A stretch of 64,000 bases of DNA, from NCBI GenBank assembly GCA_033762835.1, contig JANRLG010000305.1, positions 23,508 through 87,507 on the forward strand. Reading direction: 5' to 3'. This DNA is from Thermoanaerobaculia bacterium (lineage in GTDB: Bacteria > Acidobacteriota > Thermoanaerobaculia > Multivoradales > DATKCC01). The translations under genes were made by a program, and so were the position numbers. Shown here piece by piece: positions 5,340 to 47,188 of this stretch; position 1 is the stretch's first letter, and each line of letters opens with the position of its first letter. Under the pieces are notes generated by a model. That model was given only the letters and a program-made list of their open reading frames with translations. It had not been told where the DNA came from and did not search any database.

Positions 5340-5852
5340 CTACCGTCGCCGTTCCCAGATCAGATGCGGCAGCTCGGGGACCAGGAGCTTCTCGAGCCCC
5401 AGTTGGACGGCGGCCAGGGAGCCGGGGAGGGCGAAGAGCAGGGTCTCGCCGGCCAGGCCCCCGGTGGCGCGGGAGAGGAGAGCGGCGGAGCCCACCTGGT
5501 CCCAGGACAAGAAGCGAAAAAGCTCGCCGAAGCCGGGGAGCGGCTTCGAGAGCAGGCGTTCGACGATCTCGATCGTGGTGTCCCGGGAGCTGATGCCGGT
5601 GCCGCCGGTCGAGACGATGACGTCGAGATCGCCGCCGGCCAGCCACGCACGCAACTGCCGGTCGATGTCCGCGGGTTCGTCGCGCACGATGGCGCGGGCG
5701 ACGAGCTGGTGCCCTGCCGTCGTGAGGGCCGTGACGATGGCCGCGCCGCCGGTGTCGGTCTCGAGTGTACGGGTGTCGCTTACGGTCACCACGGCGAAGC
5801 GGGCGGACTGGCCCGCCGCGGCGGCGCGGTGGGCGGCAGTGGACTCGCTCAC
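5340..5852 (-). CDS. moaB: molybdenum cofactor biosynthesis protein B (MoaB/MogA family)
   Basis: 'FAVVTVSDTRT...DLDVIVSTGGTG' motifs. GTG start overlaps the stop of the upstream secreted-protein gene (GTGA). Confidence 0.8.
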   Translation of the reverse strand: MSESTAAHRAAAAGQSARFAVVTVSDTRTLETDTGGAAIVTALTTAGHQLVARAIVRDEPADIDRQLRAWLAGGDLDVIVSTGGTGISSRDTTIEIVERLLSKPLPGFGELFRFLSWDQVGSAALLSRATGGLAGETLLFALPGSLAAVQLGLEKLLVPELPHLIWERRR

Positions 5853-7768
5853 GGCCGGCGCCCCTTCTTGAGTGGCCGGCTCTCGATCGTCACCGTCACC
5901 ACGCTTGGGGGCAGCGCGCCCGAGAGCAAAACGGCCTTGCCGGTTTCCGGCACTTTGGCCTCGACCGGCAGAGGGCCGAGGAAGTTCGATTGCTGGCCGC
6001 TTTCGTTGCCCCCGACGTTGATGCGGTCGAGCTGAACTCCTGGGACATTCTGGAGAATCACCCACGGATCGCGGACGGTGGGAATCTCCTCGAGTTCGAC
6101 CTGCGAGACGGTCGAGCCGGTCCGGATCTTTCGCTCGCCGAGGAGCGGCTCTTCGCGTCCCATTGGAGCCGGAGGCGGTGGCGGTGGGGGCGGTGGCACG
6201 GCGCGTAACTCGCCGTCGACCAGCCGGTAGTCGCGGTTCTCCGGCAGCATCAGGCGCCATTCGTGGCGGAGCACCGAACCCCGGATCATCGGCAGTTGGA
6301 GCCGCAGGTTCTCCTTGGATTTGCCCGCGGGCAAAACCCGCTTTTCGGCGGAGACGATTTCGACCCGGTGGCGTTGGCCGCGGCCCGGAGGCAACGGAAA
6401 GCGCAACACGCCGTTCGCTTCGATGGGCCGGACGGCGGCGCCGCTCACCTGGGCGGACCAGAATTCGACGCCCGGAGGCAGTTCGACTTCGAGGGCCGGA
6501 GGGCCGGACTCGACTACGATTTCGTCCCGGTGGACGAGCGATCCCTCGACCGTGGCGACGGTCACGGTGGTGCGCGCGGGCAGCAAGCCGGTGGCCAGGG
6601 GGACCGCGGGCAGGGCCTCGATCCCGAGCGCGAGACCGCTCGGGGGGACGCCGGGTGCGAGCCGCCAGACGGCCGCCAGAGCGAGCCCTTCGACGGCCTC
6701 GCGCAACGCGGGCGGCAAGTCCTCGCGGTCCACCCGGGACCAGGCGCCGGCGGGTTGCGGCTGCCACTCGGCGGCCAGGGTCGCCGTGACCACCAAGAAC
6801 CGCGACCGCACCTCCACCTCGGGCTCGAGTACGGGCAGGGCCAAGGCGGTGCCGCCCGTGGGCCACGGCGTGCGCGATGCGAGGACGAGGTGGCCGCGGC
6901 CGGCGAGGCGGTTTTGCCGGGTTACGACCAGCCGCTCGCCGTCGAGTTCGAAGCCGGAGCTGCCTTCGTCGGTGGTCACTGTCGGGTCCGGCTCGAAGCC
7001 GGCAGGCAGGCGCAAGGCGAGCTCCGCGAGGAAGCCCCGCTGGACGTCGTAGAGCACCACGTCCGTGCGTTCGAGCTGGTCCGGTCCGGGGGCGATCAAC
7101 GTCACCGCCACGCCGCGCACATAGGCGGAGGAGGGCTCGATGGCTGCTACCCGTCCGCGGACCTCGAGCTCGGCCTGGCTACCGGTCCGGCGCGTCAAGC
7201 GCACCGTGCGCCGTTCGCCGCGGAGCTCGTCACCCGCCAAGTAGCTGCCCGGCAGGCTCCAATCGAGGCCGGCCGGAAGCTCGAGGGTGAGCTCGACGAC
7301 CGACCCTTGGGCCACCGGCAGGGGCAGTCGACTGCTGCCGCCGGATTCGCCGGCAAGCCTTGCGACGCCCTCGGCGCGCACGGTGACCCGGCCGGGTCGC
7401 AGGGGCGTCACCTGGAGCGTGCCGGCCTCGTCCCGCCCCACGGTGGCGGCCTCCGGGGGCGTGACCGTGAGCCGATCCGGGACGGCGGCCGCATCGAGCG
7501 CGAGGGACGGCGGCCGTGGGCCCGAGAAGTCGAGGTCCCACTCTGCTTCGACGCGTACCGAGTCGCCTTCGAAGCGCAGGGTCAGGCGTTCGGCGAACAC
7601 CCGGGAGTCGGCGACGGGAGGCTGCGGGAGGGGTCTTTGGGCGCGCTCGACGAGTTCGTGGTACTGGCCGAGGGGCAATTCGACCCAGCCGGCAGTCGGC
7701 GGGGACGGCGGCGGAGCGGCACTCAAGGTTGCCGCCAGGCCGGCGGCGATCCAGGACAGTGGGGTCAT
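5849..7768 (-). CDS. large secreted protein A: beta-rich N-terminus, poly-Pro linker, TonB-plug-like C-terminal segment
   Basis: Signal peptide 'MTPLSWIAAGLAATLSAAP'. Run 'PPPPPPPPPPAP'. C-terminus 'VILQNVPGVQLDRINVGGNESGQQSNF' resembles the start of a TonB-dependent receptor plug. ATG overlaps the stop of gene B (ATGA). Confidence 0.55.
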   Translation of the reverse strand: MTPLSWIAAGLAATLSAAPPPSPPTAGWVELPLGQYHELVERAQRPLPQPPVADSRVFAERLTLRFEGDSVRVEAEWDLDFSGPRPPSLALDAAAVPDRLTVTPPEAATVGRDEAGTLQVTPLRPGRVTVRAEGVARLAGESGGSSRLPLPVAQGSVVELTLELPAGLDWSLPGSYLAGDELRGERRTVRLTRRTGSQAELEVRGRVAAIEPSSAYVRGVAVTLIAPGPDQLERTDVVLYDVQRGFLAELALRLPAGFEPDPTVTTDEGSSGFELDGERLVVTRQNRLAGRGHLVLASRTPWPTGGTALALPVLEPEVEVRSRFLVVTATLAAEWQPQPAGAWSRVDREDLPPALREAVEGLALAAVWRLAPGVPPSGLALGIEALPAVPLATGLLPARTTVTVATVEGSLVHRDEIVVESGPPALEVELPPGVEFWSAQVSGAAVRPIEANGVLRFPLPPGRGQRHRVEIVSAEKRVLPAGKSKENLRLQLPMIRGSVLRHEWRLMLPENRDYRLVDGELRAVPPPPPPPPPAPMGREEPLLGERKIRTGSTVSQVELEEIPTVRDPWVILQNVPGVQLDRINVGGNESGQQSNFLGPLPVEAKVPETGKAVLLSGALPPSVVTVTIESRPLKKGRRP

Positions 7769-9540
7769 GGCCGGGCCTCCGGGACCCGCCGGACGTTCAA
7801 GACGAGCGGCGAGGGCGTGGTGTCGAGGCTGCTCCATGAGGCGGTGAGCACTTGAAACCCCGAGGGCAGCGGCTGCCAGTCGACGCCACCCGCGGGCCGT
7901 GTCCCCTTGCGCCCCACACCCGAGTGCAGCTGCTGGTTGAGGGCGCTCGCGCCGGCCTCTTCGAGCACCGGCCGGGGCGGCTGGCCGACGTTGCCGCGGC
8001 GGCTCGGGTCCACCCACTCGTAGCGGAAGGGCGCCGGCAAGCTGGCTCGCACCTCGACGGTCGAGATCGGGCTCGAGGTGTGGGGAATCGGGATCTCGAG
8101 CCGGCCGCCGTCCGTTGCCGGCCAGGGCAAGACCACCTCGGCCGACCAGAAGAGCACTTGTTCCGAGTCGCGGCTGACCAGCGGCGAAACCCAAGCGCCG
8201 CCGCGTTGGCCGAGCCGGGCCGGGGTGCCGTCGCGCCGGCTGTCGACGAGCCGTGCTCCGGTGGGCAGTGCCAGGGCAAGGTCCGGTGCCCCGTTGGCCC
8301 GCACGACCGCCCAGATCTGGTAGAACGCCCGGCCGTGTTCACCGACCAGCACGTCGACCAATAGGCGATCGACCTGGGCACCGAGAACCCGGACTTCCGC
8401 CGGCCAGGTCACCCTCCAACGGGGAGTGGAGGCCCCCGCGGGGCCGATCAGCGGCTCCCCGAGACGCGCCTGGAAGGGTGCCGGCAGGGTCTCGACCTCG
8501 TGGGCCTCGGCAGTCCGAGCCGTGATCTCCCCGGCGGGCTCGAGAATGCCGCCGCCGCGCGCCTCGGCTTTGGTCACCACGGTGGCGCGCCGCGCCCCCG
8601 TGGGCACGAGCACCGGTACGCTCGACTCCGTGGCGGCGTCGGCCGCGAGCGAGGCGTGGAGCAGCCAGCGGTTGGGCGCCGGCCCGAGGAAGTCCACTTC
8701 GAGGGTGCCCTTGGCCACTTGCCAACCGACGGCGCCGAGGCCCTCGAGGCCCTCCACGGAGACCACTTCGAAGCCCTCGGGCGCGGGGATGGTCAAGGAC
8801 TCGAGCCGTCCTTCGACGACCTGCCCCGCGATCCAGGCCTCGGCCTGGCGCCGCGTCCGTTGCAGTACCAGCGCGGTCGCTGTGGTGACCTCGAAGCGCA
8901 GGGGCCTTTCTGCGATCACGGCGGCCGGCGCGCCTGCCAGGGTCAGCCAGGCGGTACCGCCGGGGCGGCCAGTGAAGCGCCACTGCCGGGGGCCGACCCG
9001 CTCGATCCGGAGATCGTCGGTGGCGGTCACCTCTTCGTCCGTCTCCAGGGTCCCGCCCACCCGGGCGGCGGCGGGCAGCGGCAAAGAGAAGGAACCCGTC
9101 GGCCGGGTCGCGGTCACCGTCCGGGTGATGCTCTGGGTCGATTCGAGCTCCAGACGATGGCGTCCCGGTTTGCCGCGCAGCTCGAGCCGCCGGGTTTCGC
9201 CTTCGCCGATCAGCCGGATCTCGCAGGTCGCAGCGCGGGCCGCGAGCAGCGGCAGCTCCGCGGACCACGGCAGGGATTGCCAGTCGTCGCGGTGCAGCCA
9301 AACAGTGGCGCTAGCGGTAATCCGCGCGTGACCCGCGGCGACCACCACGGCGAAGTCCAGCGACTCGAAGCTCACCCCGGTGTCCGGCAGAGCCGGCTGG
9401 GCGATCACCGGAGAGCCCTGGGCACGCAGCCGGTCGTAGACGTCGAGGGGGACGGTCACGGTCTGGGCAACGAGGGCGGGGCCCGCCAGCCCAGTGACGA
9501 GGAGCCCCCCGAGGAGGCGGCGGATGGCTGTTCGATTCAT
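7765..9540 (-). CDS. large secreted protein B (paralogue of A)
   Basis: Signal peptide 'MNRTAIRRLLGGLLVTGLAGPALVAQ'. Mature N-terminus 'TVTVPLDVYDRLRAQ' parallels A's 'WVELPLGQYHELVERAQ'. Earlier part of ORF 7765..9798 is Ser/Thr-rich, probably not translated. Confidence 0.55.
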   Translation of the reverse strand: MNRTAIRRLLGGLLVTGLAGPALVAQTVTVPLDVYDRLRAQGSPVIAQPALPDTGVSFESLDFAVVVAAGHARITASATVWLHRDDWQSLPWSAELPLLAARAATCEIRLIGEGETRRLELRGKPGRHRLELESTQSITRTVTATRPTGSFSLPLPAAARVGGTLETDEEVTATDDLRIERVGPRQWRFTGRPGGTAWLTLAGAPAAVIAERPLRFEVTTATALVLQRTRRQAEAWIAGQVVEGRLESLTIPAPEGFEVVSVEGLEGLGAVGWQVAKGTLEVDFLGPAPNRWLLHASLAADAATESSVPVLVPTGARRATVVTKAEARGGGILEPAGEITARTAEAHEVETLPAPFQARLGEPLIGPAGASTPRWRVTWPAEVRVLGAQVDRLLVDVLVGEHGRAFYQIWAVVRANGAPDLALALPTGARLVDSRRDGTPARLGQRGGAWVSPLVSRDSEQVLFWSAEVVLPWPATDGGRLEIPIPHTSSPISTVEVRASLPAPFRYEWVDPSRRGNVGQPPRPVLEEAGASALNQQLHSGVGRKGTRPAGGVDWQPLPSGFQVLTASWSSLDTTPSPLVLNVRRVPEARP

Positions 9541-9544: not shown

Positions 9545-9943
9545 TCACTGTATCGCGAGGACGGCCTCGAGATCGGTTTGCGAGAAGTCGCGACCTTTGA
9601 AGAGGATGGGTTCTGCGAGGTCTTTCGCCAAGGCGTAGGCGAAGCAGTCTCCGAAGTTGAGCCCGGCCGGGTGCCGGCCTTTGCCGTACTGGCTGAAGGC
9701 GCGCCGTGCCAGTTCGACCTGAGGAAGGTCGACGGCGACTCGCTCGATCCCCGCGATCGCGAGAAAGTGGTCGAGGTCGCGGAGGCCTTCGGCGCCATAC
9801 CGCGTCTCGATGACGATCGAAGTTTCCAGCAAGTTGGCGACCGAAAGTCGTCGAGCCGCGGCCTGCTCGATCGCTTCGTTGAACGCTCGCCGTTCGGGTT
9901 CGTCCAACAGAATCGCCAGTAGAGCGGAGGAATCGATCACCAC
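9545..9943 (-). CDS. vapC: PIN-domain VapC toxin
   Basis: 132 aa starting 'MVIDSSALLAILLDEPE', ending '...LFKGRDF'. Stop lies 4 nt from the start of gene B. Confidence 0.8.
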   Translation of the reverse strand: MVIDSSALLAILLDEPERRAFNEAIEQAAARRLSVANLLETSIVIETRYGAEGLRDLDHFLAIAGIERVAVDLPQVELARRAFSQYGKGRHPAGLNFGDCFAYALAKDLAEPILFKGRDFSQTDLEAVLAIQ

Positions 9944-10197
9944 GAGCGGGGTACTCCGTTCTCGTCATAACCGAGGATCTCGGCCGCGGAGCGCGGGTCT
10001 CGCACCGGCAACCGAGAACAGTGCAGAGCGACCTCGTCCAGTTGGTCCGCCAGGGAGCGTCGAGGAGCGGCTTGCCGGACCGCGGCGAGGCGTTCGCTGA
10101 GAGCACGAGTGACGGCGCCGGTCTTGGTCTCGCCGGTCAAGAGGGCTAGCTCCTCCGCGAGCTTCTCCGTGTCGTGGTTGCGGATGTTGAGTGCCAT
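9937..10197 (-). CDS. vapB: VapB/FitA-like antitoxin
   Basis: 86 aa from 'MALNIRNHDTEKLAEELALLTGETKTGAVTRAL'. Overlaps the vapC start. Confidence 0.7.
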   Translation of the reverse strand: MALNIRNHDTEKLAEELALLTGETKTGAVTRALSERLAAVRQAAPRRSLADQLDEVALHCSRLPVRDPRSAAEILGYDENGVPRSW

Positions 10198-10252: not shown

Positions 10253-10924
10253 TCAAGTGCCGGCCCGGCGGGATCGTTGCCCGAAGAACAACCAGTGCCG
10301 CCGGCCGTGGCTGTCGGCGCGTTCACAGTTCGCGGCGAAGCCGGCGCGGGTGAGGCGTTCGGTGAACTCCGGGCAGGGCTCGGCGGACCACACCGCGAGC
10401 ACACCGCCGGGGGCCAGGCTGGCGAGCAGGTGCGTGAGGCCCTGGGGCGAATACAGCTCGCCGTTGGTCGGTAAGGTGAAGGCCCACGGGCCGTTGTCGA
10501 CGTCGAGCAGAATGGCGTCGAAGGGCTCGTCGCTGGGCAGCAGCCGGCGCAGGTCGCAACGCTCGAGCCGCACGCGCGGATCGTCCAACGGGTGTCCGGT
10601 CAACTCTCCGAGCCACTGCCGGTGAGCGTCCACGACCAGCTCGAAGAACTCGCAGACGACCAGCTGGGCGCCCGGCGGAGAGGCGTCGAGGGCCGCGCGC
10701 AGGGTGTAGCCGCAGCCGAGGCCGCCGACCAACAGTCGCGGGTTGGGATGTCCAGCGAGGCGGGCGCAGGCCCGCTCGGCGAGGGCTCGCTCCGAGCCGT
10801 GGGCACGGGAGCTCATCAGCTCCTGGCCATCGAGCATCAGCCGGTAGATCCCGTCGCGACGGGTCAGAACCAGCGCGGTGCCGTCCGGGGTCGTGGTTCG
10901 AGCGAGTGTTTCGAGGGGTTTCAT
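10253..10924 (-). CDS. spermidine-synthase-like / class I SAM-dependent methyltransferase
   Basis: 223 aa. 'LVGGLGCGYTLRA...ILLDVDNGP' Rossmann-type motifs. Confidence 0.5.
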   Translation of the reverse strand: MKPLETLARTTTPDGTALVLTRRDGIYRLMLDGQELMSSRAHGSERALAERACARLAGHPNPRLLVGGLGCGYTLRAALDASPPGAQLVVCEFFELVVDAHRQWLGELTGHPLDDPRVRLERCDLRRLLPSDEPFDAILLDVDNGPWAFTLPTNGELYSPQGLTHLLASLAPGGVLAVWSAEPCPEFTERLTRAGFAANCERADSHGRRHWLFFGQRSRRAGT

Positions 10925-10965
10925 GGCTGGGTCTCGAGACTATCCGAGACCCAGCCGAGGGAGGG

Positions 10966-11298
10966 TCACAGGGGCGACGGCGGATCCGTGTCAGCGGGCA
11001 GCGACTCGTAGCAGCCCGTGGGACCGGCCTGGCAGTTGACGCCCGGCGTCCACCAACAGAACCCGAAGTGCTGGGCGTTCTGGACCAACTCGATGACGCC
11101 GTAGCGGCAGTCTTCGGGGGTCCGATAGGGATCGGAGATGCCGACTTCGAAACGCCCGTCGCAGTCGTAGTCGTACTGGATCACCGCGTAGTACTTGCAC
11201 ACTTGGGGACCGACGATCGGACGGGCGGCTTGGGACGGCACCGCGGCCGCGACGAAACCGAGCAGGGCGAGGGCGGAAAGCAGCAAACGTCGAGACAT
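10966..11298 (-). CDS. small secreted Cys-rich protein
   Basis: 110 aa. Signal peptide 'MSRRLLLSALALLGFVAAAVPSQA' then 8 Cys. This is the only coding-like part of the 1059-aa minus-strand ORF. Confidence 0.5.
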   Translation of the reverse strand: MSRRLLLSALALLGFVAAAVPSQAARPIVGPQVCKYYAVIQYDYDCDGRFEVGISDPYRTPEDCRYGVIELVQNAQHFGFCWWTPGVNCQAGPTGCYESLPADTDPPSPL

Positions 11299-11408
11299 CT
11301 TTTTCTCTCCTTGGTTCCTGGTTTGGAAGGCGCATCGCCCGGTTCGCCTGCCGATGGTTCGAGGCGCGTTCGACCTCCGAAGTCCCTCATCGAAGTTGAA
11401 AAATGCTA

Positions 11409-11438
11409 TTGCAGCTTGCATCCTGCTCGAACTATGCT
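11409..11438 (+). promoter_or_regulatory. possible sigma70-like promoter for the PKD-protein gene
   Basis: 'TTGCAG'-N18-'TATGCT' in an AT-richer intergenic stretch ~25 nt upstream of the start at 11464. Confidence 0.25.
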
Positions 11439-11463
11439 CCGGCGGCAAATTCGAGGAGGAGCC

Positions 11464-13971
11464 ATGGCGGGAACTGGGTGGGTGTTTCAGGGTTCGACGA
11501 CGATCGTCTTCGGCCTCGGCCTTGCTCTGGGGGCCGCGGCAGGGGCACAGCCCGCGGTGTGCATCGACGGCAATCAAGGGGCCAGCGCGCCGCCCGCGGC
11601 CTTGTGGGGCGAGCTCCAGCCCGGCGTACCCGGTCGCCTGCCGGCGTCTCGGGACTCCACGAACTACACCGGGCAGCAGTTGCCCGACGCGCTCTACCCG
11701 AACTTCTCCTCTTTGGACCTCGAAAATGGCTGGGTGTTCGTGAGCTACTCGCTGGGAGTCCAGATCTGGGACGCCCGTGGGGTGCGCGAGGCCGATCCTG
11801 TCCTCATGGCCGAGCGCGACGCCAAACGGTGCGGCGACTTTCTGGAACCGCCCTTCACCTGCGGGCGCGACGGCACCGGCGAGGCTCGTTGGTCGGTGTG
11901 GGACATCGATGCGCCGGAAGGCAAGGACGACGTCGTGGCGGCCTTCGGTCGGGCGCCCCTGGGCGTCACGATCTGGAACAGCGCCCAGAAGTCCAATCTC
12001 GAGCCGAAGTATCAGGACACCGCGGCCAACTTCTACGCCGGCTGGGCGGTCACGATCGGCGGGCGCGACTACGCCTTCGCCGCCGCGGACGGCACCAACG
12101 GGCTCGACGGCCTCGTGGTCTACGACCTGACGACGGCCAAGAACCTGGTCACGCCGTGCCTCGAAAACTCGGCGGTGACCACGGCTTGTGGGGTCCGGCG
12201 GAACCGGTTCGCCCCCGGCGCTCCAGCCTTCTACGTCGATGGCTTTCGGCATGGGGACGGCCGGACCTTCCTGGTCCACTCCGGCCGGGTCTCGGCCCGT
12301 GGCCTCGAGTTGTGGGACGTTTCGGACCCGGCAGCACCGACCAACCTGCGGGCGGGCGGAGGTCGTTTCCTGGCGAGCCGGATCGTCCACGGGGTCGCGC
12401 TCTGGCAGGAAGGCTCGCGGAGCTTTCTCGCGGCCTGGTTCTTCGAGCCTAAGGCGAACGAGTACGCGGCCGAGCTGTTCGACCTCACCTCGTGCTTGAC
12501 ACCGGTCGGTTGCCGCGAGCTGCCCGCTCCGCTGGCCACCCTGCACCGTGTCGGCCCTGTCGCCGACGAGTACTTCGTCACCTTCTCGCGCGGCACGGGC
12601 GGCACGCCCTACCTCTACTTCGGGCATCAGGGCAAATGCCTGACCGGACGGCAAACGGAGTGGCTCTACGACGTTTCGCCCCTGGCGATCGGCGGCGCTC
12701 CCCACGAGATCACCCCGGACCAGACGATCACCGCGGTGACGGCGACCGAGGGGCCGACCCAGGTCGACTACTGGAGTTATGCCTACGCTCAGAATCCCGG
12801 CGGGTACAGCCAAGTCATGCCGCGGGTGGGCAAGTTTCAGGGCGACCTGTTCTATCGCGCCGCGTGGACGCTGTTCGACACCCACCGGCGGGTGGCCCCG
12901 CGGCTCGACATCGCAGGACCGGCCACGGCGAGCACCGGACAACACCGACGCTTCGTGGCCAGCGCGACCCACTGCCTGCCGGGAGCGACGGGCTGGACGT
13001 GGACCGCCACGGGCGGGGCGAGCGGCGGGGGTTCGGGACCGGAAGCCACGTTCGACTGGCCGGCCGCCGGGACGTTCACGGTCACCGCCCGCCACCCGGC
13101 GTGCTCCACCGGCCTGGGGAGCAAGTCGGTCACGGTAAAAGCTGCCGCCAGCGTGCCGCTGTTGGCCGAGTTCGCGGCCGAAGATTGCGGGGGTTCGCCG
13201 TGCACGGTTCCGGTCGGGACCGCGGTGGAGTTCACGGATTTCTCGGCCGGGATCGTCGCCTCGAGTTCGTTCGCCTACGACTGGAACCACACCGGCGCCA
13301 GCGAGGCGACCTGTCGGTTCGGCTTCGGCAGCACCGAGCCGGCTGCCGCCCACGTTTTCCTGACCGCGGGCGCCTGGACGCCGTGCCTGCGCGTCACTCG
13401 CGGGGCTGCCGAAAGCGACGACTTCGTCTCGGCGCCGATCATCGTCACCGGCGTCAGCCTGCCGTCGCTGGCCTTGAACGGACCGGGAGCCGCGCGGACG
13501 GGGCAAGCCGTAACGCTGACTGCCCTCGCCGAGGGCTGCGCTCCGGGTACCGCGGGTTGGGTCTGGACGGCGCCGGGGGCGGTGTTCGACGGTCCGGCGG
13601 ACCGCTCGAGCGTGCAACTGCGTTGGCCCACGGCCGGCAGCCGCGTCGTCGCCGTGGCGCATCCCCAGTGTCCGGGGGCGTTGGCCAGCCGGCCCGTCAC
13701 GGTCACTGGTTCTTCCTCCGCGGCACTCACGGCGGAGTTCCACTACCGGACGACCGCGCCGCTCACCCTGGCCTTCGAGGGCGCGCTGTCGACCGGTGCC
13801 GGTCGTTTCACTTGGACCTTCCCTGGCGGCGTCCGCAAGTCGGGCCCCTCGGTGCTGCATCGGTTCGCCACCGCGGGGACGTTCCCGGTCACCCTCGAAG
13901 TCCAAGCCGCTGATTGCGGGGCGCCGCCGTGCCCGCTGTCGACAGTGACGCGGAGCGTGCGGGTGGAGTGA
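11464..13971 (+). CDS. large secreted protein with LVIVD-like beta-propeller repeats and three PKD-like domains
   Basis: 835 aa. Shine-Dalgarno AGGAGG then signal peptide. 'GLDGLVVYDLTT' and 'RGLELWDVSDP' LVIVD-type repeats. Three C-terminal ~85-aa repeats with 'W.WT..G' and 'AG.F.VT' PKD-like motifs. Confidence 0.7.
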   Translation: MAGTGWVFQGSTTIVFGLGLALGAAAGAQPAVCIDGNQGASAPPAALWGELQPGVPGRLPASRDSTNYTGQQLPDALYPNFSSLDLENGWVFVSYSLGVQIWDARGVREADPVLMAERDAKRCGDFLEPPFTCGRDGTGEARWSVWDIDAPEGKDDVVAAFGRAPLGVTIWNSAQKSNLEPKYQDTAANFYAGWAVTIGGRDYAFAAADGTNGLDGLVVYDLTTAKNLVTPCLENSAVTTACGVRRNRFAPGAPAFYVDGFRHGDGRTFLVHSGRVSARGLELWDVSDPAAPTNLRAGGGRFLASRIVHGVALWQEGSRSFLAAWFFEPKANEYAAELFDLTSCLTPVGCRELPAPLATLHRVGPVADEYFVTFSRGTGGTPYLYFGHQGKCLTGRQTEWLYDVSPLAIGGAPHEITPDQTITAVTATEGPTQVDYWSYAYAQNPGGYSQVMPRVGKFQGDLFYRAAWTLFDTHRRVAPRLDIAGPATASTGQHRRFVASATHCLPGATGWTWTATGGASGGGSGPEATFDWPAAGTFTVTARHPACSTGLGSKSVTVKAAASVPLLAEFAAEDCGGSPCTVPVGTAVEFTDFSAGIVASSSFAYDWNHTGASEATCRFGFGSTEPAAAHVFLTAGAWTPCLRVTRGAAESDDFVSAPIIVTGVSLPSLALNGPGAARTGQAVTLTALAEGCAPGTAGWVWTAPGAVFDGPADRSSVQLRWPTAGSRVVAVAHPQCPGALASRPVTVTGSSSAALTAEFHYRTTAPLTLAFEGALSTGAGRFTWTFPGGVRKSGPSVLHRFATAGTFPVTLEVQAADCGAPPCPLSTVTRSVRVE

Positions 13972-14055
13972 GGGCCCTTGGACTCGCCGTGCGGCGGGGT
14001 GCCCCCGCACGGTGTTACGCTGCCGGTCTGTCGTTTTCGAGAGAAAGGCAACACC

Positions 14056-14406
14056 GTGCGGGGCTTCACGCTGGTCGAAACCGTCGTCGCGCTGCTTCTC
14101 CTGATGGTGGCGCTGCTGCTGGGGCTCGCCCTGGTGCTCGAGCAACCGCGGGTGGCGCGCCGGCTCGACGGGCAGCTGGCGGCCCTCGAAGCGCTCGAGA
14201 CGACGGTCGAGGCTCTACGCGCCGGAGTGCTGCCGCTCGTCTCGACCGAGCTGCCGGCCACGGAAGTTCGTCCGGCGCGGTCCATCGAGGTCACCCCCGA
14301 CGGCGTCCGGCCCCACTTGTTCCGGGTTCAGGTCCGCGTCCGGTACGTGGTGCTCGGCCGAACCCTGGAGCGCCGTCTCGAAACGCTGATCTGGAGCCCG
14401 CCGTGA
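14056..14406 (+). CDS. prepilin-type N-terminal cleavage/methylation domain protein (pseudopilin / minor pilin)
   Basis: GTG start. 'VRG|FTLVETVVALLLLMVALLLG' is the classic G-F-T-L-[IV]-E signature. Confidence 0.6.
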   Translation: MRGFTLVETVVALLLLMVALLLGLALVLEQPRVARRLDGQLAALEALETTVEALRAGVLPLVSTELPATEVRPARSIEVTPDGVRPHLFRVQVRVRYVVLGRTLERRLETLIWSPP

Positions 14407-14930
14407 AGCGGCAAGGCGGCTTCAGCTTGATCGAGACACTGGTGGCGCTCCTTCTCTTCCTCTTCGGCGTGCTGCTCGCGACCCAACTGCTGCTCGAAAC
14501 CTCGCGCCGCCTGCGCGATGGCTATGCCCGCGATCTCGAGTCGCCGGTAGCGCCCGCGCGGGCGCGCTTGCGGGCGGACCTCGAAGCCGCGGCTCATGGG
14601 CGGTGCGAGCGCGACGCCGAGGGCGTCGCCACCGCCGTGCGTGCCTACGGTCACCCCACCGGCACCGTCGTCTACCAACTGGAAGACGGCATTCTCTGGC
14701 GTTATCTCGAAGCCGAGCCCGCGGCGCGGGCGCGGGTGATCGCGGGCCTCACCGGCTTTGCCTGTGCGGACTCCGGTCCGCTCGTGGGCCTCGAGCTCTC
14801 CGGTCGTCGCCGCGCACTGCGGCGTTCTCCCTTGGTCGGTGCGCCGGGAGACCTGCCCGCGGCGAGCGAACCCTGGGTCGAAACCCTGTGGGTGGCGCCC
14901 CGCGGGGGCGGGCGGGGGAGCGGGTGGTGA
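14403..14930 (+). CDS. prepilin-type pseudopilin / minor pilin
   Basis: GTG start overlapping the previous stop (GTGA). 'KRQGG|FSLIETLVALLLFLFGVLLA'. Confidence 0.6.
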   Translation: MKRQGGFSLIETLVALLLFLFGVLLATQLLLETSRRLRDGYARDLESPVAPARARLRADLEAAAHGRCERDAEGVATAVRAYGHPTGTVVYQLEDGILWRYLEAEPAARARVIAGLTGFACADSGPLVGLELSGRRRALRRSPLVGAPGDLPAASEPWVETLWVAPRGGGRGSGW

Positions 14931-15337
14931 GTCGGCGCCGGGGGGAGCGGGGGCAGGGCTTGCTGACGGCTTTGCTGGTGCTGCTGCTGGTCGCCATCGC
15001 CAGCGCGCTCCTCGCTACCGAGCTGCATCGCCAGCAACGCCAAGTCCGCCAGGAAGCCGGCGGCCTTGAGCTTCGCGCCCTCTCCGACGCCGCTCTCGCC
15101 GAAACCCTCGCCGAGCTGGCCGTGGACCGCAACTTCGCGGGGGTGGTAGAGCACGAGTTCGCCCGTGGGCGGATCGCCAGCACGGTCGAGACTCTCGCCA
15201 GCAACCGCTGGCTCGTCCGTGCCGAAAGTCGATTCGGCCTGCGGGTGCGTGTGGTCGAAGCCGAAGTGCGGCGCAGCGGCACGCAATTGCAGGTGGTCCG
15301 CTGGCGGCGGGTGAGCGCCGCGGAGGCGGAGGAATGA
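14924..15337 (+). CDS. pseudopilin-like protein (GspK/PilX-like N-terminal helix, no Glu5)
   Basis: Start overlaps the previous stop. 'GQGLLTALLVLLLVAIASALLATELHRQ' hydrophobic N-terminus. Confidence 0.4.
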   Translation: MVSRRRGERGQGLLTALLVLLLVAIASALLATELHRQQRQVRQEAGGLELRALSDAALAETLAELAVDRNFAGVVEHEFARGRIASTVETLASNRWLVRAESRFGLRVRVVEAEVRRSGTQLQVVRWRRVSAAEAEE

Positions 15338-37668: not shown

Positions 37669-38532
37669 ATGTCGACCCATACCGCCACCGTAGGCCCCGC
37701 CGACCATTTCGAGTATCTCCGCCACCGTGTGCGGTTCGATCCGGCGGCGGCGCCCCGGCTGTTGGCCGAGCTTCTTCGGGAGGACCGTGCCGTGGAAATG
37801 CCCCGCGACCCGCAGGTTTGGACGGCCCTCGTCGAACACGGTGATTCGAACACTCTGGCCCGCGCCGTTCTCTCCGGCCTCCAGCCGGGGCAGATGCAGG
37901 TGTTGAGTCTCGATGCCGGCTTGCGCTTCGACTGCCTCGACGCCCTGGAGCGGCACGCCTGGGCCCTGGTGGCCGAGGATCGGGCGCCCGTCCTGCCACC
38001 GGATGGTTATCCGGCCCTGTTGGCGGAGAAAGTCTTCGAGCCTCTGGGGATGTTCGCCGAGGCGGCGGCCCTCTATGCCCTTGGCCATGACGATCGCGAC
38101 GCCTCCGGCAAACCCCTCGATCGCCTCACCCGGGCCGTGATGTGTTACCGCTTGGCGCGCAGTCTCGGCCGCCTGGCCCAAGACGAACCGGAATGGCGGT
38201 CCTGTGCTCTCGAGCTCATGGCGAGCGCCTGCCACGCCTGTGAACCCAAGTCGCCGGAACGGCTCGGCAGTGACCCGACGGGCCTACGGCTTCGCTTGCA
38301 TGGTTATCAGTGGCTGGGCGCCCGCTGGGCCGCCGATGGTCGCGAGGCCGAGGCGCGCCAGGCTTTCGAACGGGCGATCCGCGCGGCCCTGGAGCTCGGG
38401 GAAGGGGAGTTGGCAGTGGCTCTCGAGGCCTTCAGCCGTTACTCGTTGGGTCCGGCGAACGATGGAGTTCCAGTTCCCACTCTACCGTCGCCCAATCGGC
38501 GGCCGTCGAGCGGATCACGTTCGTCGCGCTGA
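37669..38532 (+). CDS. hypothetical alpha-helical protein
   Basis: Long ORF with coding-like composition. Its 3' end overlaps the convergent caspase gene. Confidence 0.3.
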   Translation: MSTHTATVGPADHFEYLRHRVRFDPAAAPRLLAELLREDRAVEMPRDPQVWTALVEHGDSNTLARAVLSGLQPGQMQVLSLDAGLRFDCLDALERHAWALVAEDRAPVLPPDGYPALLAEKVFEPLGMFAEAAALYALGHDDRDASGKPLDRLTRAVMCYRLARSLGRLAQDEPEWRSCALELMASACHACEPKSPERLGSDPTGLRLRLHGYQWLGARWAADGREAEARQAFERAIRAALELGEGELAVALEAFSRYSLGPANDGVPVPTLPSPNRRPSSGSRSSR

Positions 38533-40417
38533 CCCGGCCGCGGAGCCAGGCCGCGAGGAACTCGTCGAGCGGGGAGCGGAACACCGTCGGCGGCACGGGC
38601 GGCGCGGCCGGCGCCGTCAAAGCTGGTAGCTCCAACCACTCGAAACTCGCTGGGCGCTCGGAGGCGATAACTTTCAGCACCGCCCGGCCGCGTTCGGCGC
38701 CGGCCGGCAGCTCGCCCACGGCGAGCAGCACGGGGGTGCTCTCCCCGGGGCCCAAGCTCGACCACGGGCCGAGGGGCCACAGCTGCTCGATGCTCCAGTC
38801 GGCACCGAGCGACAGGAGTGTCACGTACAGCACACGGTCGCTGTGATTGGCCGCGGCCAAGGTGAAGCTCCGGCCCGCCGGGAAATGGCCGGGCTCGGTG
38901 ACGATCCGGCGGTCGATGGCGAGCGTGACGGCGTCCCGCAGTTGGCTCGCCGAGTCGCGGTTGCGCAGGGTTCTCACGCCCTCGAAGCGCGCCCAGTGGG
39001 CGAGGCGCCGAACGAGTTCGGAGGCGGCGTTCGGTGCGTTCGAATCGAGGGGCGGACCGAGCGCGAGGATCTCGCCCAGAGTGGTGGTGACGGCAAACCG
39101 GCCATCCGCGCCGACCTCGATCCGAAGATCCGCGACTTCGTCCGCCGCCGCCGCCCGCAAGAAGGATTCGCGCTCCGGACTCGGCGCGGTCAGCAGGACC
39201 GCCAACTCGGTCAGCTCGGCGGCCGCTCCGACCAACCGTGCCCGTCGGAGCAAGCGCCACGGCGCGGGAGACAGCAGACCCAAGAGCTCGCCGGGCTCGA
39301 TCCGCACGGGAGGACCGTCGCCGACCGCGTGAACGACGCTGCTGTGATCGTCGACCGACTGGGCTTCGAAAACGGTGGTCGCGAACGCACCCAGGGGAAA
39401 GCGGAAGAGGGCGCCCGGGGCGAGGCCTTGCAGAGCCCCGGCGGCCAGTCGGAGCCCGCCATCTTCCCTAGTTTCGAGCACGGCCACACCCCGCGGCGCG
39501 GCGACCGGCTCCCGACCCAGGAAAACCCGATCGAGAACTCCCTCCGCTTGCGGCGTTTGGCGCGAGCCGGCCAGGAGCAAAGCGGACTGGGTGCGCCGGA
39601 GCAACTCGCGGTAGGTCGCCCCGCCCGGCCCGGCGCGCCGCAGAGCCGACAGCAACGAAGCCGTGAACAAGCCGCCCACGCTGCCGTCTTCGAGCGGGGC
39701 TTCGAGGGCCAACTCGTGGGCGGCACAGGCCGCCAGGAGGGTGTGGCGCGAGCCCGCGAGCCAGGGATGGCAGGCGGCGTCGCCCCAGCCAGCGGCGCGA
39801 CGGGCGGCGAAGGCCCGCAGTGTGGCGAGATCGGCGACCGCCGACGGGAGTTCGTCGCAGGCGCGGCGCAGGCAGTGCGCGCCGCGCACGCGGACCCGGG
39901 GCTCGGCGCGAAGAGCACCGCCGGCGAAGCAGGCATCGAGGATGACCACGGTATCGATCTCGCGGGCGGCGAGCTCCGCGAGTAGATAGGCCAACTCGAG
40001 ATCGTGGAGGAGCCGGCCTTCGGCAGCGGCGGCATCGTAGGGCACTAGGCACTCGTCGAGACCGGGGCGGCGCTCCGGGAGCAGGCTCGGCACCCGCACG
40101 CCGTGACCCGAGAAGTAGAACAGGACGATGTCGCCCGGCTCGGCGCGGGTGGCCATCCGCCGCCAAGCGCCGACGATTTGGGCATAACCTGGGCGATCCG
40201 CGGGGGCCTCGCGGGGTTCGGCGGTGAGTCCGCGGGAGGCGGTCAGCAGGCACAGGTCCTCGGGTGGCAGTCCGAGGTCGCGCTCTAGGTAAGCGTGAAA
40301 CTTGCGCGCATCGCGCACGCCGCCGTCGAGGCCTTCGAAATCGAACTCGCGTCCAATCGGGCTGTCGGCGTAGCGGTCGATGCCGACCACCAGAGCGTGG
40401 GCTCGCGGCCGGCTCAT
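38432..40417 (-). CDS. caspase-domain (peptidase C14) protein with ~430-aa C-terminal extension
   Basis: Caspase core runs 'ALVVGIDRYADSP' to 'IVLFYFSGHGV' (His) to 'VVILDACFAGG' (Cys). Start ATGA-coupled to the upstream gene. Confidence 0.75.
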   Translation of the reverse strand: MSRPRAHALVVGIDRYADSPIGREFDFEGLDGGVRDARKFHAYLERDLGLPPEDLCLLTASRGLTAEPREAPADRPGYAQIVGAWRRMATRAEPGDIVLFYFSGHGVRVPSLLPERRPGLDECLVPYDAAAAEGRLLHDLELAYLLAELAAREIDTVVILDACFAGGALRAEPRVRVRGAHCLRRACDELPSAVADLATLRAFAARRAAGWGDAACHPWLAGSRHTLLAACAAHELALEAPLEDGSVGGLFTASLLSALRRAGPGGATYRELLRRTQSALLLAGSRQTPQAEGVLDRVFLGREPVAAPRGVAVLETREDGGLRLAAGALQGLAPGALFRFPLGAFATTVFEAQSVDDHSSVVHAVGDGPPVRIEPGELLGLLSPAPWRLLRRARLVGAAAELTELAVLLTAPSPERESFLRAAAADEVADLRIEVGADGRFAVTTTLGEILALGPPLDSNAPNAASELVRRLAHWARFEGVRTLRNRDSASQLRDAVTLAIDRRIVTEPGHFPAGRSFTLAAANHSDRVLYVTLLSLGADWSIEQLWPLGPWSSLGPGESTPVLLAVGELPAGAERGRAVLKVIASERPASFEWLELPALTAPAAPPVPPTVFRSPLDEFLAAWLRGRVSATNVIRSTAADWATVEWELELHRSPDPTSNG

Positions 40418-41748
40418 GGCCGTCGAGGCACCGCCAGGCGCACCGCCGGGTCCCCGATCAGGACGTAGGAGCGCGCGTCTCGCGCGGCGATCCACAGGAT
40501 GCCCAGCCAACGGGGGTCGACGTCGCCTCGCTCCCCTTCGAGCGCTTCGTGCAGCTCGTGCAGGATGTCGCCGTAGCGCGCGCCGAAGCCATGCAGTGCG
40601 TCCCCCACGCGGCGTCCCTCGAGCAGGCCCCGCAGGGCCTCGCGGTAAACCTCGCGGCCGCCGTCGAGCCGATAGGAGTAGGGCCAGGCGAGGTCGACGT
40701 GGCCGATGAAGGCGAGTGCCCCGCCCCGGGGGTGGGTGAGCAGGCGCCGCGGCAGTGCCGAGACGAACGCCGAGGGCGCGAGCGGCGCGGGTTCCGCGCG
40801 ACCGAGGGCGGGGGCGAAGCCTTCGACGGCGGGCGTGCCCGCGGTGCAGCAGCCGAAGGCGAACACGATCAGACCGGCGACGTCGAGCTCGTCGTCGATG
40901 TCTTCAGCCGCGAGGAAGTGGCCACCGCTCATGCCCGTCCCAGGCCAGTCGGCGCAAACCACCGCGCCCTGCCCGGCGGCTTGACGCTCGTCGGCAGCAG
41001 GAAAGGCCAAGCCGTGGCTGGCGAGAAAAACCAGCGCCGGCGCCTCGGACCCGCCGAGCAGCGACCGGATCCGGTCCTTGGTAGCGCCTGCGCCGATCTC
41101 GGCGATCAGCGACCAATCCGGCTCGTCGGTCAAAGCCTCGGCCAGGGGCGCCAGCAACTCGTCGGCCGACAACTCGGTCGCCCGGTCGCCGGCAAAACGC
41201 GGCCCCGCCAGCGCCCACGAGCGCTGCCGCCGACGCCGACCGCTTTCCGCCGCCACGACGCCGCGGGCATAACGCTCGTAGTCGTCGGGCGTAGCGAAGT
41301 CCAGGCGCCCCACCGAGCGCGCCTGGTCGAAGGCGTACTGGCGCTCCCAGGGCAAACCCTCCGGTTCCCCCACGAGCAGCAAATAGTCGGGGTCCGTGAC
41401 CTCGTCCCGAGCCGCCCCGAGCGGTACCAATCCGAGACCCTTGCGCGTAGCGGCCTCCGGCACCAGTTCGAACTCTCCCACCCGCTCCCCGAACCGCTGT
41501 CGGCGCCAAGCGATCAACGGCTCCAGCGCCTCCCGCAGCTCCAAAGCCCCCGGCCCGAAAGCCACCCCCCAGCGCTCATACCCCGGCGCCCGCGACCGCG
41601 CCTTCGAGCCTCCAAACTGCATCCGCTCCCGCCCCGCGAGCAAAGCCCGACCCACCGCCGCCGGTTCCGCAGCGCCCCGGAACGGCTCGCCCCGCAAACC
41701 ATCGAGGCCGTTCCAGATGTGGGTGTCGTCGGGGTGGGGGGCGGGCAT
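40414..41748 (-). CDS. putative clan-CD (caspase/CHAT-like) cysteine peptidase homologue
   Basis: 'ALVFLASHGL' and 'LIVFAFGCCTAG' form a candidate His/Cys dyad in caspase-like order. The N-terminal 250 aa are unassigned. Confidence 0.45.
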   Translation of the reverse strand: MPAPHPDDTHIWNGLDGLRGEPFRGAAEPAAVGRALLAGRERMQFGGSKARSRAPGYERWGVAFGPGALELREALEPLIAWRRQRFGERVGEFELVPEAATRKGLGLVPLGAARDEVTDPDYLLLVGEPEGLPWERQYAFDQARSVGRLDFATPDDYERYARGVVAAESGRRRRQRSWALAGPRFAGDRATELSADELLAPLAEALTDEPDWSLIAEIGAGATKDRIRSLLGGSEAPALVFLASHGLAFPAADERQAAGQGAVVCADWPGTGMSGGHFLAAEDIDDELDVAGLIVFAFGCCTAGTPAVEGFAPALGRAEPAPLAPSAFVSALPRRLLTHPRGGALAFIGHVDLAWPYSYRLDGGREVYREALRGLLEGRRVGDALHGFGARYGDILHELHEALEGERGDVDPRWLGILWIAARDARSYVLIGDPAVRLAVPRRP

Positions 41749-41966
41749 CAGGCGCCTTTCGACTTGCCGCGAGCACTCCGAGTTGTCGGCCGAGGCTTAT
41801 TGCGCTTCGGTGCAGCTTTCGCCTTGGGCGTAGCGGGAGCTTGGAAGCTGTTGGTCGGGGGGTCGGGGGGGACTGGATCCCCTCCAGGCTTTGTCCCCTG
41901 GGCGGGCGTCGGAGAAGGGGGATTGTCCTCCGGACGGAAGACTTCTGCTTTGTGTTCATCGTGCAT
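41748..41966 (-). CDS. small Pro/Lys-rich basic ORF coupled to the clan-CD gene
   Basis: 72 aa. Stop overlaps the next ATG by 1 nt (TGATG). The composition is not decisive. Confidence 0.2.
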   Translation of the reverse strand: MHDEHKAEVFRPEDNPPSPTPAQGTKPGGDPVPPDPPTNSFQAPATPKAKAAPKRNKPRPTTRSARGKSKGA

Positions 41967-42054
41967 GGTTCTTGGTCTCCTAAGCGGGTATCAAGTGCCC
42001 CAGGAGGAGCTGCCGTCGCCCGCTAGGTGCAATACCCGAACTCTTTCCAGAGGT

Positions 42055-44937: not shown

Positions 44938-47188
44938 GGAGTTCGACGGGGTGGTAGGCGACGAGCCGGGGTTGGTCCGTGGCCAGGTCGTTGAGCTCGA
45001 GCCGATAGTTGCCGGGCGAAAGTCCCCAGAATTGGGCGCAGAGGGCCTCACCGCAGGGCTTGGCCGAGGTGGTGGCGACGACGGCATCGGTCATCGAGTC
45101 GAGCAACGCAGCTTGCGGCTCGGCGATTTCACCGAGCGTCCGGGCGTCGATCCGGAAAAGCGCCTTGTGGGGCCACCGGCCGAGCTCGAGGGTCGTGACG
45201 TCGTCGTCGCCGCGGAGCGTGCTCACGGGGACGATGTACGTTTCCGGCACCGGTGCCGTCGCGAACATCACCCCGCCCAAGCCGGCCGCGAGCCCCGCGG
45301 AGGCGGCCAGCCACTTCCAGGCGTGGCGCTTCGGTGCTGGGGCTGTGGTCGCGGTGGGGAACTGGAGGACGGGTGAGACTGGCATCACCTCGGCGTCTTT
45401 GCCCTCGGCTTCGATCGCGGCTTGAAGCCGGATCCGATCCGCCGCTTGCCAGGAAGCGAGCTCCTCGGGGGAAACCACGTCCGCGGTGGGACTTGAGAAG
45501 GCCTGCCAGTCGAGCACGGACTCGGCGAGCTCCGGGTTCTTCGCGAGCTGATCCTGGTACTTCTCGGCCTCGGCCTCGCTCAGCACCCCCGCGAAGTACA
45601 AAGCCGACCGCTCGTCGGTCGAGTCGGCCGTCTTCCCCGGAGGGGTGGGAAACCGATTCACGTTGTCCATGGTCCGAGGCCCGGCAGTAGCGCCCTTCAG
45701 ATCATGATCAAGCTTCTCCGCTTTGGCAAGCGGACCACCGCCAGCCGCGCCCGCACCGACCCGCCGAAACGCCCCCGGCCTCGAGATCTCCTCCTGGACC
45801 TGCCGGACGATCGCCTGCGTCAGCTCCCGCCGCTCTGCGGCCTCGCGGAGGATGGCCCAGGAAGCGAGAGTTTCCCGACCCACACCGAGGGCCTCGAAGG
45901 TCTTTCCCATGGAGATGGCTAGAGATAGGACCTGGTCAGTGCGGTTCTTCTCTAGAAGAAGTAGCGTTAGGTCCAGCGTAACAAGAGCAGCATTAAAAAT
46001 GTGGCCTCTCTCAATGTATATTTCTTGAGCGCGGTCCAGGCAGTCTTCTGGACCTCCTATCCGTTCGTCACCGGCCAGCGCTAGTCCCAAGACCCAAAGC
46101 CTACCGGGTTCCCAGAAGGGCCTTTTCAGATACTCGGGCTTTAGCTTCTCGAGAAGTTCTTGCGCTTCACTGGGTCGTCCGTACTTAGCTAGCAGGACCG
46201 CCCGGCAGTGCCAAGCATGCAGCAGAAGGTCGCTATCCGCCGCTTCTTGCGCTAGGCAAGCTGCATCTACCACTGTGCGGAGGCCTCGCTTCAAGTCGCC
46301 GGATACTTCATGGATCATAGTCGCCGAGAGTTTCGCCGAGATGGCTTCGCGCAACCGGTGCAGGTGGTCGTAGAGGATATGCGAGATATTAGAGTATGTT
46401 AAGGCGTCACGAAAATTTCTGAGATCCCTGGCGATGGAGGCGCTGAAGCTCGTGGCTTCTGCCCAAAAGACGGGATTCCGGACCGCGTGATGGGAAGCCG
46501 TTTGGATTGCCTCTTCGATTATCTTTTTCGCCTGATGCAGGTCTCCGAAGCACCGCATTGAGTTGCCTCTGAAGAGATCCGCCCGGACCTGAAAAGCTAA
46601 GTCGGTCGTAGAGCCAGTAGCCGCCCAGCGAGACACTACTTCTGCCCACGAGCCCGAAGCTCGTGGGCCTTCTGGCAACGCCGCCCGTGCCTCCACCAAG
46701 CAAGCGCTCGCCACCGCCTCCCCTGCAAATGCCTCCGGCTCGCGCTTCACCAGCTCCAACCGCTCCGTCGCCGACAGCGGCCTCAACCGCTCGATCGCCC
46801 TTCTGGCTCGCTCTTGTTCTTCGGCGCTGAAAGTGGGCGCGGGTGGTGGCGGGACTCGGCCGAGGTCTTCGACCGGAATGCCGATCAGGCGGGCGGCCTC
46901 TTCGCGGGCTTCGCGCTCCTCGCTGATCCCAACGTCGAGGCGGGCTTTGTCTTCGCTTTGCCAGAGGGTGAGGGTGGCGGTCGGTAGAGAGTCGGCGGAA
47001 GGGGGCGCGAAACACTGCCAGTCGAGCAGGGTCTCGGCGAGGTCGGGATCGTGGGCCAGGTCGTCTTGGAGGGTCTCGACATCCTCGGGACACAGCCGGC
47101 CGCCGAAATAGGCTGCCGCGCGTTCGCCGGCGGCGAGATTCGGTGGACTTTCTCCGGGGCGCCTCGGCAGCCCGTGGGTCGCGTTCAT
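44915..47188 (-). CDS. anti-sigma-factor-like protein with duplicated N-terminal module, TPR-like insert, TM segment and periplasmic C-terminal domain
   Basis: N-terminal 'ERAAAYFGGRLCPEDVETLQDDLAHDPDLAETLLDWQCF' recurs at ~aa 520 as 'ERSALYFAGVLSEAEAEKYQDQLAKNPELAESVLDWQAF'. A TM helix 'WKWLAASAGLAAGLGGVMFATAP' follows. Lies 28 nt downstream of the ECF sigma gene. The middle is lower-GC. Confidence 0.5.
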   Translation of the reverse strand: MNATHGLPRRPGESPPNLAAGERAAAYFGGRLCPEDVETLQDDLAHDPDLAETLLDWQCFAPPSADSLPTATLTLWQSEDKARLDVGISEEREAREEAARLIGIPVEDLGRVPPPPAPTFSAEEQERARRAIERLRPLSATERLELVKREPEAFAGEAVASACLVEARAALPEGPRASGSWAEVVSRWAATGSTTDLAFQVRADLFRGNSMRCFGDLHQAKKIIEEAIQTASHHAVRNPVFWAEATSFSASIARDLRNFRDALTYSNISHILYDHLHRLREAISAKLSATMIHEVSGDLKRGLRTVVDAACLAQEAADSDLLLHAWHCRAVLLAKYGRPSEAQELLEKLKPEYLKRPFWEPGRLWVLGLALAGDERIGGPEDCLDRAQEIYIERGHIFNAALVTLDLTLLLLEKNRTDQVLSLAISMGKTFEALGVGRETLASWAILREAAERRELTQAIVRQVQEEISRPGAFRRVGAGAAGGGPLAKAEKLDHDLKGATAGPRTMDNVNRFPTPPGKTADSTDERSALYFAGVLSEAEAEKYQDQLAKNPELAESVLDWQAFSSPTADVVSPEELASWQAADRIRLQAAIEAEGKDAEVMPVSPVLQFPTATTAPAPKRHAWKWLAASAGLAAGLGGVMFATAPVPETYIVPVSTLRGDDDVTTLELGRWPHKALFRIDARTLGEIAEPQAALLDSMTDAVVATTSAKPCGEALCAQFWGLSPGNYRLELNDLATDQPRLVAYHPVELLATDRAP

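Follow-up and report, generated by a model that had tools for sequence, protein, structure and literature searches.

The 64-kb window analysed here (64,000 nucleotides of contig JANRLG010000305.1 from a Thermoanaerobaculia bacterium; G+C ~68%; its proteins match, with full identity, entries of a metagenome-assembled genome of this class) contains a cassette of three small genes, here called A, B and C, lying between the gene for a large propeller protein and ileS, which is the next gene after C (at 15507). We conclude, with a probability of about 0.75, that A-B-C is a translationally coupled operon for the I, J and K minor (pseudo)pilins that prime and cap a type IV filament, and that the large protein is unrelated to it. 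Gene A (14056..14406, +; 116 aa) encodes a putative I-type minor prepilin (GspI/PilV/ComGE-like) beginning MRG|FTLVE, gene B (14403..14930, +; 175 aa) a J-type minor prepilin (GspJ/XcpW/PilW-like) beginning MKRQGG|FSLIE, and gene C (14927..15337, +; 136 aa) a putative K-type pilin-like protein (GspK/PilX/ComGG/YgdB-like) that is devoid of Glu5. The three genes are a genuine minor-pilin set, self-contained and recurring alone across the Acidobacteriota, and are likely to specify the complex of I, J and K subunits that initiates type IV filaments in acidobacteria. Literature searches turned up no account of the cassette for Acidobacteriota, and its members constitute a previously unannotated set of families, C being labelled hypothetical by NCBI and A and B being recognised only via their N-terminal motif.

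An earlier note on this DNA, made from the sequence alone, had described A and B as textbook prepilins, and had proposed a hidden Markov model (HMM) check of the small proteins. Both pass the cut-off of the Pfam N_methyl model (PF07963; 21.2 bits), with scores of 21.5 bits for A and 27.2 bits for B. The glycine at position -1, the phenylalanine at +1 and the glutamate at +5 are invariant in the A family (15 homologues) and in the B family. Comparison with NCBIfam gives weak, sub-threshold matches to gspI (best E 4.5e-6) and PilV in all 15 members of the A family, and 14 of the 15 also match XpsI and ComGE below threshold. The window A protein itself scores 15.4 bits against TIGR01707 gspI, below the cut-off of 44.35 bits, and reaches E 1.8e-4 with ComGE (2e-7 for the best member of its family), again below the cut-offs. 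Eleven of the 15 A-family proteins also weakly match the NCBIfam family 'Verru_Chthon cassette protein C' (best E 2.1e-5), which is part of another described stand-alone cassette of prepilin-motif proteins.

For gene B, an AlphaFold2 (AF2) model built from 11 sequences has a mean predicted local distance difference test (pLDDT) score of 81.7; a long helix at the N-terminus leads into eight strands. The modelled protein has the GspJ/XcpW/PilW (J-class) fold, in which the conserved pilin sheet is accompanied by a second, variable beta-sheet. When the model was used for a fold search, the match next in rank was another minor pilin with a score of 6.3, all lower ranks scoring 5.3 or less. The Tt1219 structure has been called XcpW/GspJ-like by its authors (PMC5131608). 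At the level of sequence, 4 and 6 of the 11 B-family members match NCBIfam TIGR01711 gspJ and PRK08808, respectively (E at least 0.0019), and the window B protein matches neither.

The third gene was said in the earlier note to encode a similar hydrophobic N-terminus, and this is what we find: the N-terminus reads RGQG|LLTALLV, Arg-rich residues and a Gly precede the hydrophobic stretch, and there is no Glu5. Across 31 homologues, position +5 is never acidic. C thus shows a prepilin-like N-terminus lacking Glu5, encoded directly after a J-type gene, as expected of the K class. Nineteen of the 31 C-family members weakly match the N-terminal ~50 positions of the NCBIfam T2SS_GspK model (best E 0.0014); the window C protein scores 14.6 bits against this model (NF037980) over its N-terminal 51 residues only, compared with a cut-off of 130. 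Faint Pfam matches to PilX_N (two of the 31) and ComGG (one of the 31) likewise fall short of the curated models. A search of 1.84 billion representative proteins with the C profile recovered 611 clusters (at 50% identity) with E<=1e-3, of which 303 had E<=1e-10. Since the best 150 C-family representatives are all 101-206 aa long and are matched over their full length, C is a member of a consistent small-protein family of its own, and a truncated GspK can be discounted. Its 136 residues leave no room for the large alpha-helical insertion domain of GspK, a protein of about 300-330 aa in all (327 aa in E. coli). The C-terminus of C carries a conserved strand-like segment, RVVRW, in which Trp126 is invariant. 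This suggests that C probably completes its own beta-sheet in cis via the RVVRW strand, in the manner of type II secretion system (T2SS) GspK or of ComGG, and needs no PilY1-type partner; such an arrangement would be in keeping with the lack of any PilY1 gene beside the cassette.

The class of each protein was further compared by scoring the A, B and C family HMMs on the nine pseudopilins of E. coli K-12. The top match is GspI for the A family (21.4 bits) and GspK for the C family (11.8 bits, with YgdB at 6.9 bits), while the top two for the B family are GspJ (18.4 bits) and PpdB (17.8 bits), the margins between classes being only 1-3 bits. Because A picks GspI, B picks GspJ and PpdB, and C picks GspK, the order A-B-C corresponds to I-J-K. 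It agrees with the synteny pilI-pilJ-pilK, which is described as near-invariant (PMC13533445). The earlier comparison of the small genes with GspI-J-K or PilV-W-X sets is thus supported by the N_methyl matches of A and B, by the lack of Glu5 in C and by the I-J-K gene order.

We collected further loci carrying the trio by exact-protein look-ups, by a scan of species-representative genomes, which contributed 7 loci in Thermoanaerobaculia, Holophagales and other Acidobacteriota, and by a scan of metagenomes, which contributed 29. Genes in the fetched loci were called with a GC3-based caller, such that start codons there are approximate. Neighbouring genes were then clustered using the 382 called proteins from 27 loci of at least 5 kb in Acidobacteriota genomes and metagenomes. 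The only universal families are A (26 loci), B (27) and C (25), the gaps being contig ends. The next commonest neighbour of the trio is a response regulator or histidine kinase, present in 9 of the 27 loci, and every other family is found in seven loci or fewer and tracks sub-clades. In nearly all loci A, B and C share a strand in that order, and successive genes either overlap by 4-7 nt or are 0-1 nt apart. No GspE/PilB-type Walker-A signature and no further prepilin-motif gene was found within ±10 kb of the trio in any of the 27 loci.

The neighbours themselves differ between clades. In one clade (L007, L009, L012, L017, L022, L025 and L033), C is followed on the same strand by a 124-aa single-domain response regulator, often together with a hybrid histidine kinase. 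At locus L040 a GAF histidine kinase gene (10929..13448) overlaps the stop codon of C. These downstream genes may reflect regulatory coupling of the cassette. The 839-aa product of the L040 gene was considered as an analogue of PilY1 and rejected, being a cytoplasmic GAF histidine kinase found at that locus only. Another clade (L029, L031, L037, L038, L040, L042 and L014) has a conserved secreted protein of ~180 aa encoded upstream of A on the same strand, directly adjacent to it in six of the seven loci. A conserved secreted protein of ~165 aa is encoded convergently downstream of the trio in six loci which largely overlap that set, and neither protein is assigned to a family. Proteins combining a GSDH-type propeller with PKD domains are encoded upstream of the trio on the opposite strand in L009 (179..2644), L017 (6956..8893), L022 (4782..9404), L025 (2..1693) and L014 (4976..6559). 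The gene directly adjoins the trio in L017, L022 and L025, with two tandem copies in L022, and two small TIR-domain proteins are encoded between it and the pilin cassette in L009 (2865..3619). The large protein of the window and these GSDH-PKD proteins come from separate families.

Within the window, translational coupling is evident at two of the three junctions. The earlier note had each small gene starting with a GTG that overlaps the preceding stop, which is correct for B and C (in both cases GTGA with the preceding TGA) and incorrect for A. Gene A starts at GTG 14056, 85 nt past the TGA of the large gene (13969-13971) and in the same frame, 28 codons after that TGA. This start was chosen because homologues align with equally short leaders and because a Shine-Dalgarno-like stretch, GAGAGAAAGG, lies within the conserved 5' leader of the cassette (13992..14055, +). 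Two other starts, TTG 13978 and GTG 13999, were ruled out by the short leaders of the homologues, and the second of these is GCG at the corresponding position in L004. A consensus scan of positions 10800-15600 revealed no sigma-70-like promoter, and the two terminator-like sites in the same interval are not above shuffled controls.

The position of the large gene (11464..13971, +) next to the cassette is explained by comparison with the closest relative, L004 (85% identity). The order of genes there is the same as in the window, but a gene for a 488-aa VCPO-like protein stands between the large gene and A. Alignment of the window to L004 by blastn yields two collinear blocks, 9008-13974 and 13992-20000. 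Between them, the 1.6-kb segment of L004 (12512..14118) which includes the VCPO-like gene is replaced in the window by a junction of 17 bp (13975..13991), with the collinear match resuming at 13992, upstream of A. The more distant loci L005 and L006 have the VCPO gene followed by the trio and lack the large protein. Since this VCPO-trio arrangement is thus also found outside L004, the state seen in the window is a deletion, and a recent 1.6-kb loss of the VCPO-like gene brought the large gene beside the cassette. Moreover, a homologue of the large protein with 69% identity (L001-L003) is followed by a convergent glycosyltransferase gene with no pilin genes nearby, and among the 27 clustered trio loci the large-protein family occurs only in the window and in L004. 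The large protein is therefore a chance neighbour, unrelated to the cassette.

The large protein is secreted or displayed at the surface, and the reading frame of 835 aa with a hydrophobic, signal-like N-terminus is as the earlier note described it. Only 13 homologues were found, indicating a small family. Its AF2 model (pLDDT 80.8) contains an all-beta propeller region (residues ~50-480) whose 28 strands form about seven four-stranded blades (residues ~80-480), followed by four immunoglobulin (Ig)-like sandwiches; the C-terminus (residues 825-834) supplies the final strand of the fourth Ig-like domain. As to the LVIVD-type repeats of the note, Pfam LVIVD (PF08309) gives no match at E<=1 in the window protein and faint matches in three of the 13 homologues (best E 0.037), and Pfam YVTN is not matched at significance; LVIVD/YVTN-like blade motifs are nevertheless present as seven repeats of the pattern h-x-h-[WYF]-[DN]-h-[ST]. 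The three PKD-like domains of the note are recovered by Pfam as three PKD stretches (E 6e-14), which are three of the four sandwiches of the model. Foldseek matches include SorCS2, with a VPS10 propeller and PKD domain, and 1l0q, a YVTN propeller with PKD domain from an archaeal (Methanosarcina) surface layer; both share with the large protein the order of beta-propeller first and PKD/Ig domains second. PilY1 is absent from the top 50 Foldseek matches, a set dominated by tandem Ig domains which says little about the propeller family. The Pfam Neisseria_PilC/PilY1 model has no match at E<=1 in the window protein, nor at E<=10 in the 13 homologues.

These results bear on the reading put forward in the earlier note, in which the four genes are one unit and the large protein is a dedicated tip adhesin, comparable to PilY1, MshQ or CpaL, carried on a pseudopilus primed by the trio. 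What makes that reading attractive is that the large gene is on the same strand with the trio beginning only 85 nt downstream, and that its propeller has about seven blades, as does the propeller in the C-terminal domain of PilY1. Comparable proteins are also seen elsewhere: the GSDH-type propeller-plus-PKD proteins, encoded upstream and divergently, accompany the trio in 5 of the 27 loci, and in one locus a VWA protein gene is one gene away from it. We nevertheless regard a four-gene adhesin unit as extremely improbable, synteny having largely refuted it. The adjacency in the window is a deletion product and is not conserved, and neither the PilC/PilY1 profile nor the top 50 of the fold search links the large protein to PilC/PilY1. 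Furthermore, the domain order is reversed. In PilC/PilY1 the propeller is C-terminal and ends in a free beta-strand of ~10 residues which completes the sheet of the K subunit, and the gene follows the K-type gene (PMC13533445). The large protein instead has its propeller at the N-terminus and its C-terminus buried in an Ig-like domain, and its gene lies upstream of the I-type gene, whereas a position downstream of the K-type gene would be expected. The GSDH-PKD genes, for their part, occur in a single other clade and are encoded on the strand opposite to the trio. A broader version of the idea, in which the cassette is a phylum-specific minimal priming module of I-J-K composition that lacks H, keeps the licensing strand of K in cis and recruits variable propeller/PKD or VWA proteins as exchangeable tip cargo in some clades, strikes us as very unlikely. 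If it were true, the large protein of the window and the GSDH-PKD proteins would be alternative partners and not chance neighbours.

Two further alternatives concern the function of the cassette itself. The genes could encode a membrane-anchored signalling or regulatory module, or a relic in some other role, with no part in filament priming. The response regulators and kinases found after C would fit with this, as would the fact that machinery genes are never linked to the cassette, and in Pseudomonas the minor pilins and PilY1 are reported to modulate FimS-AlgR signalling (PMC5979040). Set against this, the processing motif and Glu5 of A and B are strictly conserved, the coupling of the genes is kept and B has a J-class fold, all of which are hallmarks of subunits that assemble. 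In addition, the window lacks the signalling genes, whose occurrence is clade-specific, and orphan minor-pilin operons which prime filaments are known, for example ppdAB-ygdB-ppdC of E. coli (PMC5131608). We therefore consider a signalling or relic role unlikely. The second alternative assigns the cassette specifically to a T2SS, as a GspIJK tip, as opposed to a type IV pilus (T4P). Its best weak HMM matches are GspI, GspJ and GspK, and C seems to have a terminal strand of its own, like the K subunits of T2SS (PMC13533445). T2SS genes are reported in all genomes of another acidobacterial family, in which T4P genes are also reported (bioRxiv 10.1101/2021.04.09.439258). However, C lacks the GspK alpha-domain and scores far below the GspK cut-off, and gspH-K genes normally form part of the gsp operon, while T4P minor pilins are the ones typically encoded in orphan cassettes. 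The data do not separate T2SS from a type IVa pilus or a Com-like pilus, and a specific assignment to T2SS is in our view less likely than not.

For the preferred reading, that of an I-J-K priming complex, the GspIJK and PilVWX complexes serve as the template for a mechanism (Korotkov and Hol 2008, as treated in PMC5131608; PMC13533445). Prepilin peptidase would cut A and B after the Gly and N-methylate Phe1, and Glu5 of both proteins would be used in the docking of subunits. By analogy, A, B and C would associate in the inner membrane through their N-terminal helices, giving a heterotrimer in which C would be the apical, first subunit; we propose that the absence of Glu5 from C reflects its having no preceding subunit. 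This heterotrimer would then template the addition of the major (pseudo)pilin, so initiating a filament (either a type II secretion pseudopilus or a type IVa pilus) at whose tip it would finally sit. The ATPase, platform protein, secretin, prepilin peptidase and major pilin, along with any H-type adaptor, would be encoded elsewhere in the genome.

Several observations weigh against this interpretation. The window encodes neither assembly machinery nor a prepilin peptidase nor a major pilin. The note had already stated that machinery and major pilin are missing, and our scans of the 64 kb agree with it, in that six-frame translation yields no further prepilin motif, no GspE/PilB Walker-A signature is present, and no T2SS or T4P Pfam family is matched among the 20 other sizeable window proteins. 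The cassette also has no H-type subunit, which canonical sets of four genes do include. When profiles of the A, B and C families were run against PDB sequences, nothing significant came back, only matches to the N-terminal helix or chance matches (E at least 0.085). Finally, the I-type and K-type assignments of A and C draw on sub-threshold HMM scores with class margins of 1-3 bits, together with gene order, and are accordingly tentative.

Upstream of the large gene and divergent from it, a gene outside the cassette encodes a small secreted protein of 110 aa (10966..11298, -). It had been credited with eight cysteines, but its translation contains six. It matches no Pfam or NCBIfam family, is kept in L004 only, and is an unrelated secreted neighbour of the cassette. 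Genes for proteins of 218-223 aa lie upstream of the large gene on the opposite strand in the window (10253..10924, -), in L001 (9248..9904) and in L004 (8785..9456), and the protein of the window weakly resembles spermidine synthase. Next to its gene are a VapC (PIN) gene and an antitoxin-like gene (9545..10190, -), a pair which is kept in L004 (PIN + PSK_trans_fac). Two adjoining proteins of ~600 aa with signal-like N-termini and no Pfam match (5849..9540, -) occur in the same order in L004. Further away, at 38432..47774 (-), there are genes for a 652-aa caspase-like Peptidase_C14 protein, a 444-aa protein whose C-terminus is Peptidase_C25-like, a TPR+CHAT protein (1010 aa) and a TPR protein (757 aa), with an ECF-sigma-like gene; this cluster could be a CHAT/caspase signalling or defence module. 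A second cluster, on a single strand at 48664..56012, comprises an Amidase_3 protein (48664..49734), an actin/MreB-like protein with weak Volactin/Salactin matches (49731..50762), an 804-aa protein with a HerA-like N-terminus (51116..53530) and two paralogous secreted proteins of ~407 aa which belong to no Pfam family (53539..54762 and 54786..56012).

The cassette offers annotators a way into the pili and secretion biology of a phylum that, although poorly cultured, abounds in soils and sediments. The analysis also corrects the tempting reading of an adhesin in an operon with its own pseudopilus, and shows that such calls are decided by synteny across relatives and not by adjacency in one genome. 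Protein C, moreover, is a very small natural K-type candidate with which the cis beta-strand licensing model could be tested.

Set beside known systems, the cassette has counterparts in several without coinciding with any. Compared to the GspI-GspJ-GspK/XcpV-W-X tip complex (PDB 3CI0, 3NJE), it has no H-type gene and lies outside a gsp operon, all of the curated HMM cut-offs are missed, and C has 136 aa as against the 327 of GspK. The core minor pilins of type IVa pili (FimU-PilV-PilW-PilX-PilY1 in Pseudomonas and Myxococcus; PilH-I-J-K with PilC in Neisseria) share with it an operon set apart from the machinery, the arrangement I-J-K and a K-type subunit that is small and has no Glu5, and we infer the same role in priming and at the tip. 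The cassette differs from these in that it comprises just three genes, a FimU/PilH-type pilin and a PilY1/PilC gene both being absent, and because C seems to keep its own C-terminal strand, an adhesin donating a strand in trans is probably not required. The Tt1218/Tt1219 cluster of Thermus thermophilus contains seven pilin-like genes, including a major pilin and ComZ, compared to three here, and its authors report no clear K-type member in it (PMC5131608). ComGE-ComGF-ComGG of Gram-positive competence pili resemble the cassette in size (about 100-140 aa), in order and in a last member without Glu5, but the com genes are in one operon with the ATPase, the platform protein, the major pilin and ComGD. 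The ppdA-ppdB-ygdB-ppdC operon of E. coli K-12 has four genes in another order, and its similarity to the cassette is at the level of the N-terminal helix only. Nonetheless, the B-family HMM scores PpdB almost equally to GspJ, YgdB is a protein of 135 aa without Glu5, and, like the cassette, this is an orphan minor-pilin operon among housekeeping genes, lying between thyA and recC in a 6-kb stretch free of pilus-assembly genes.

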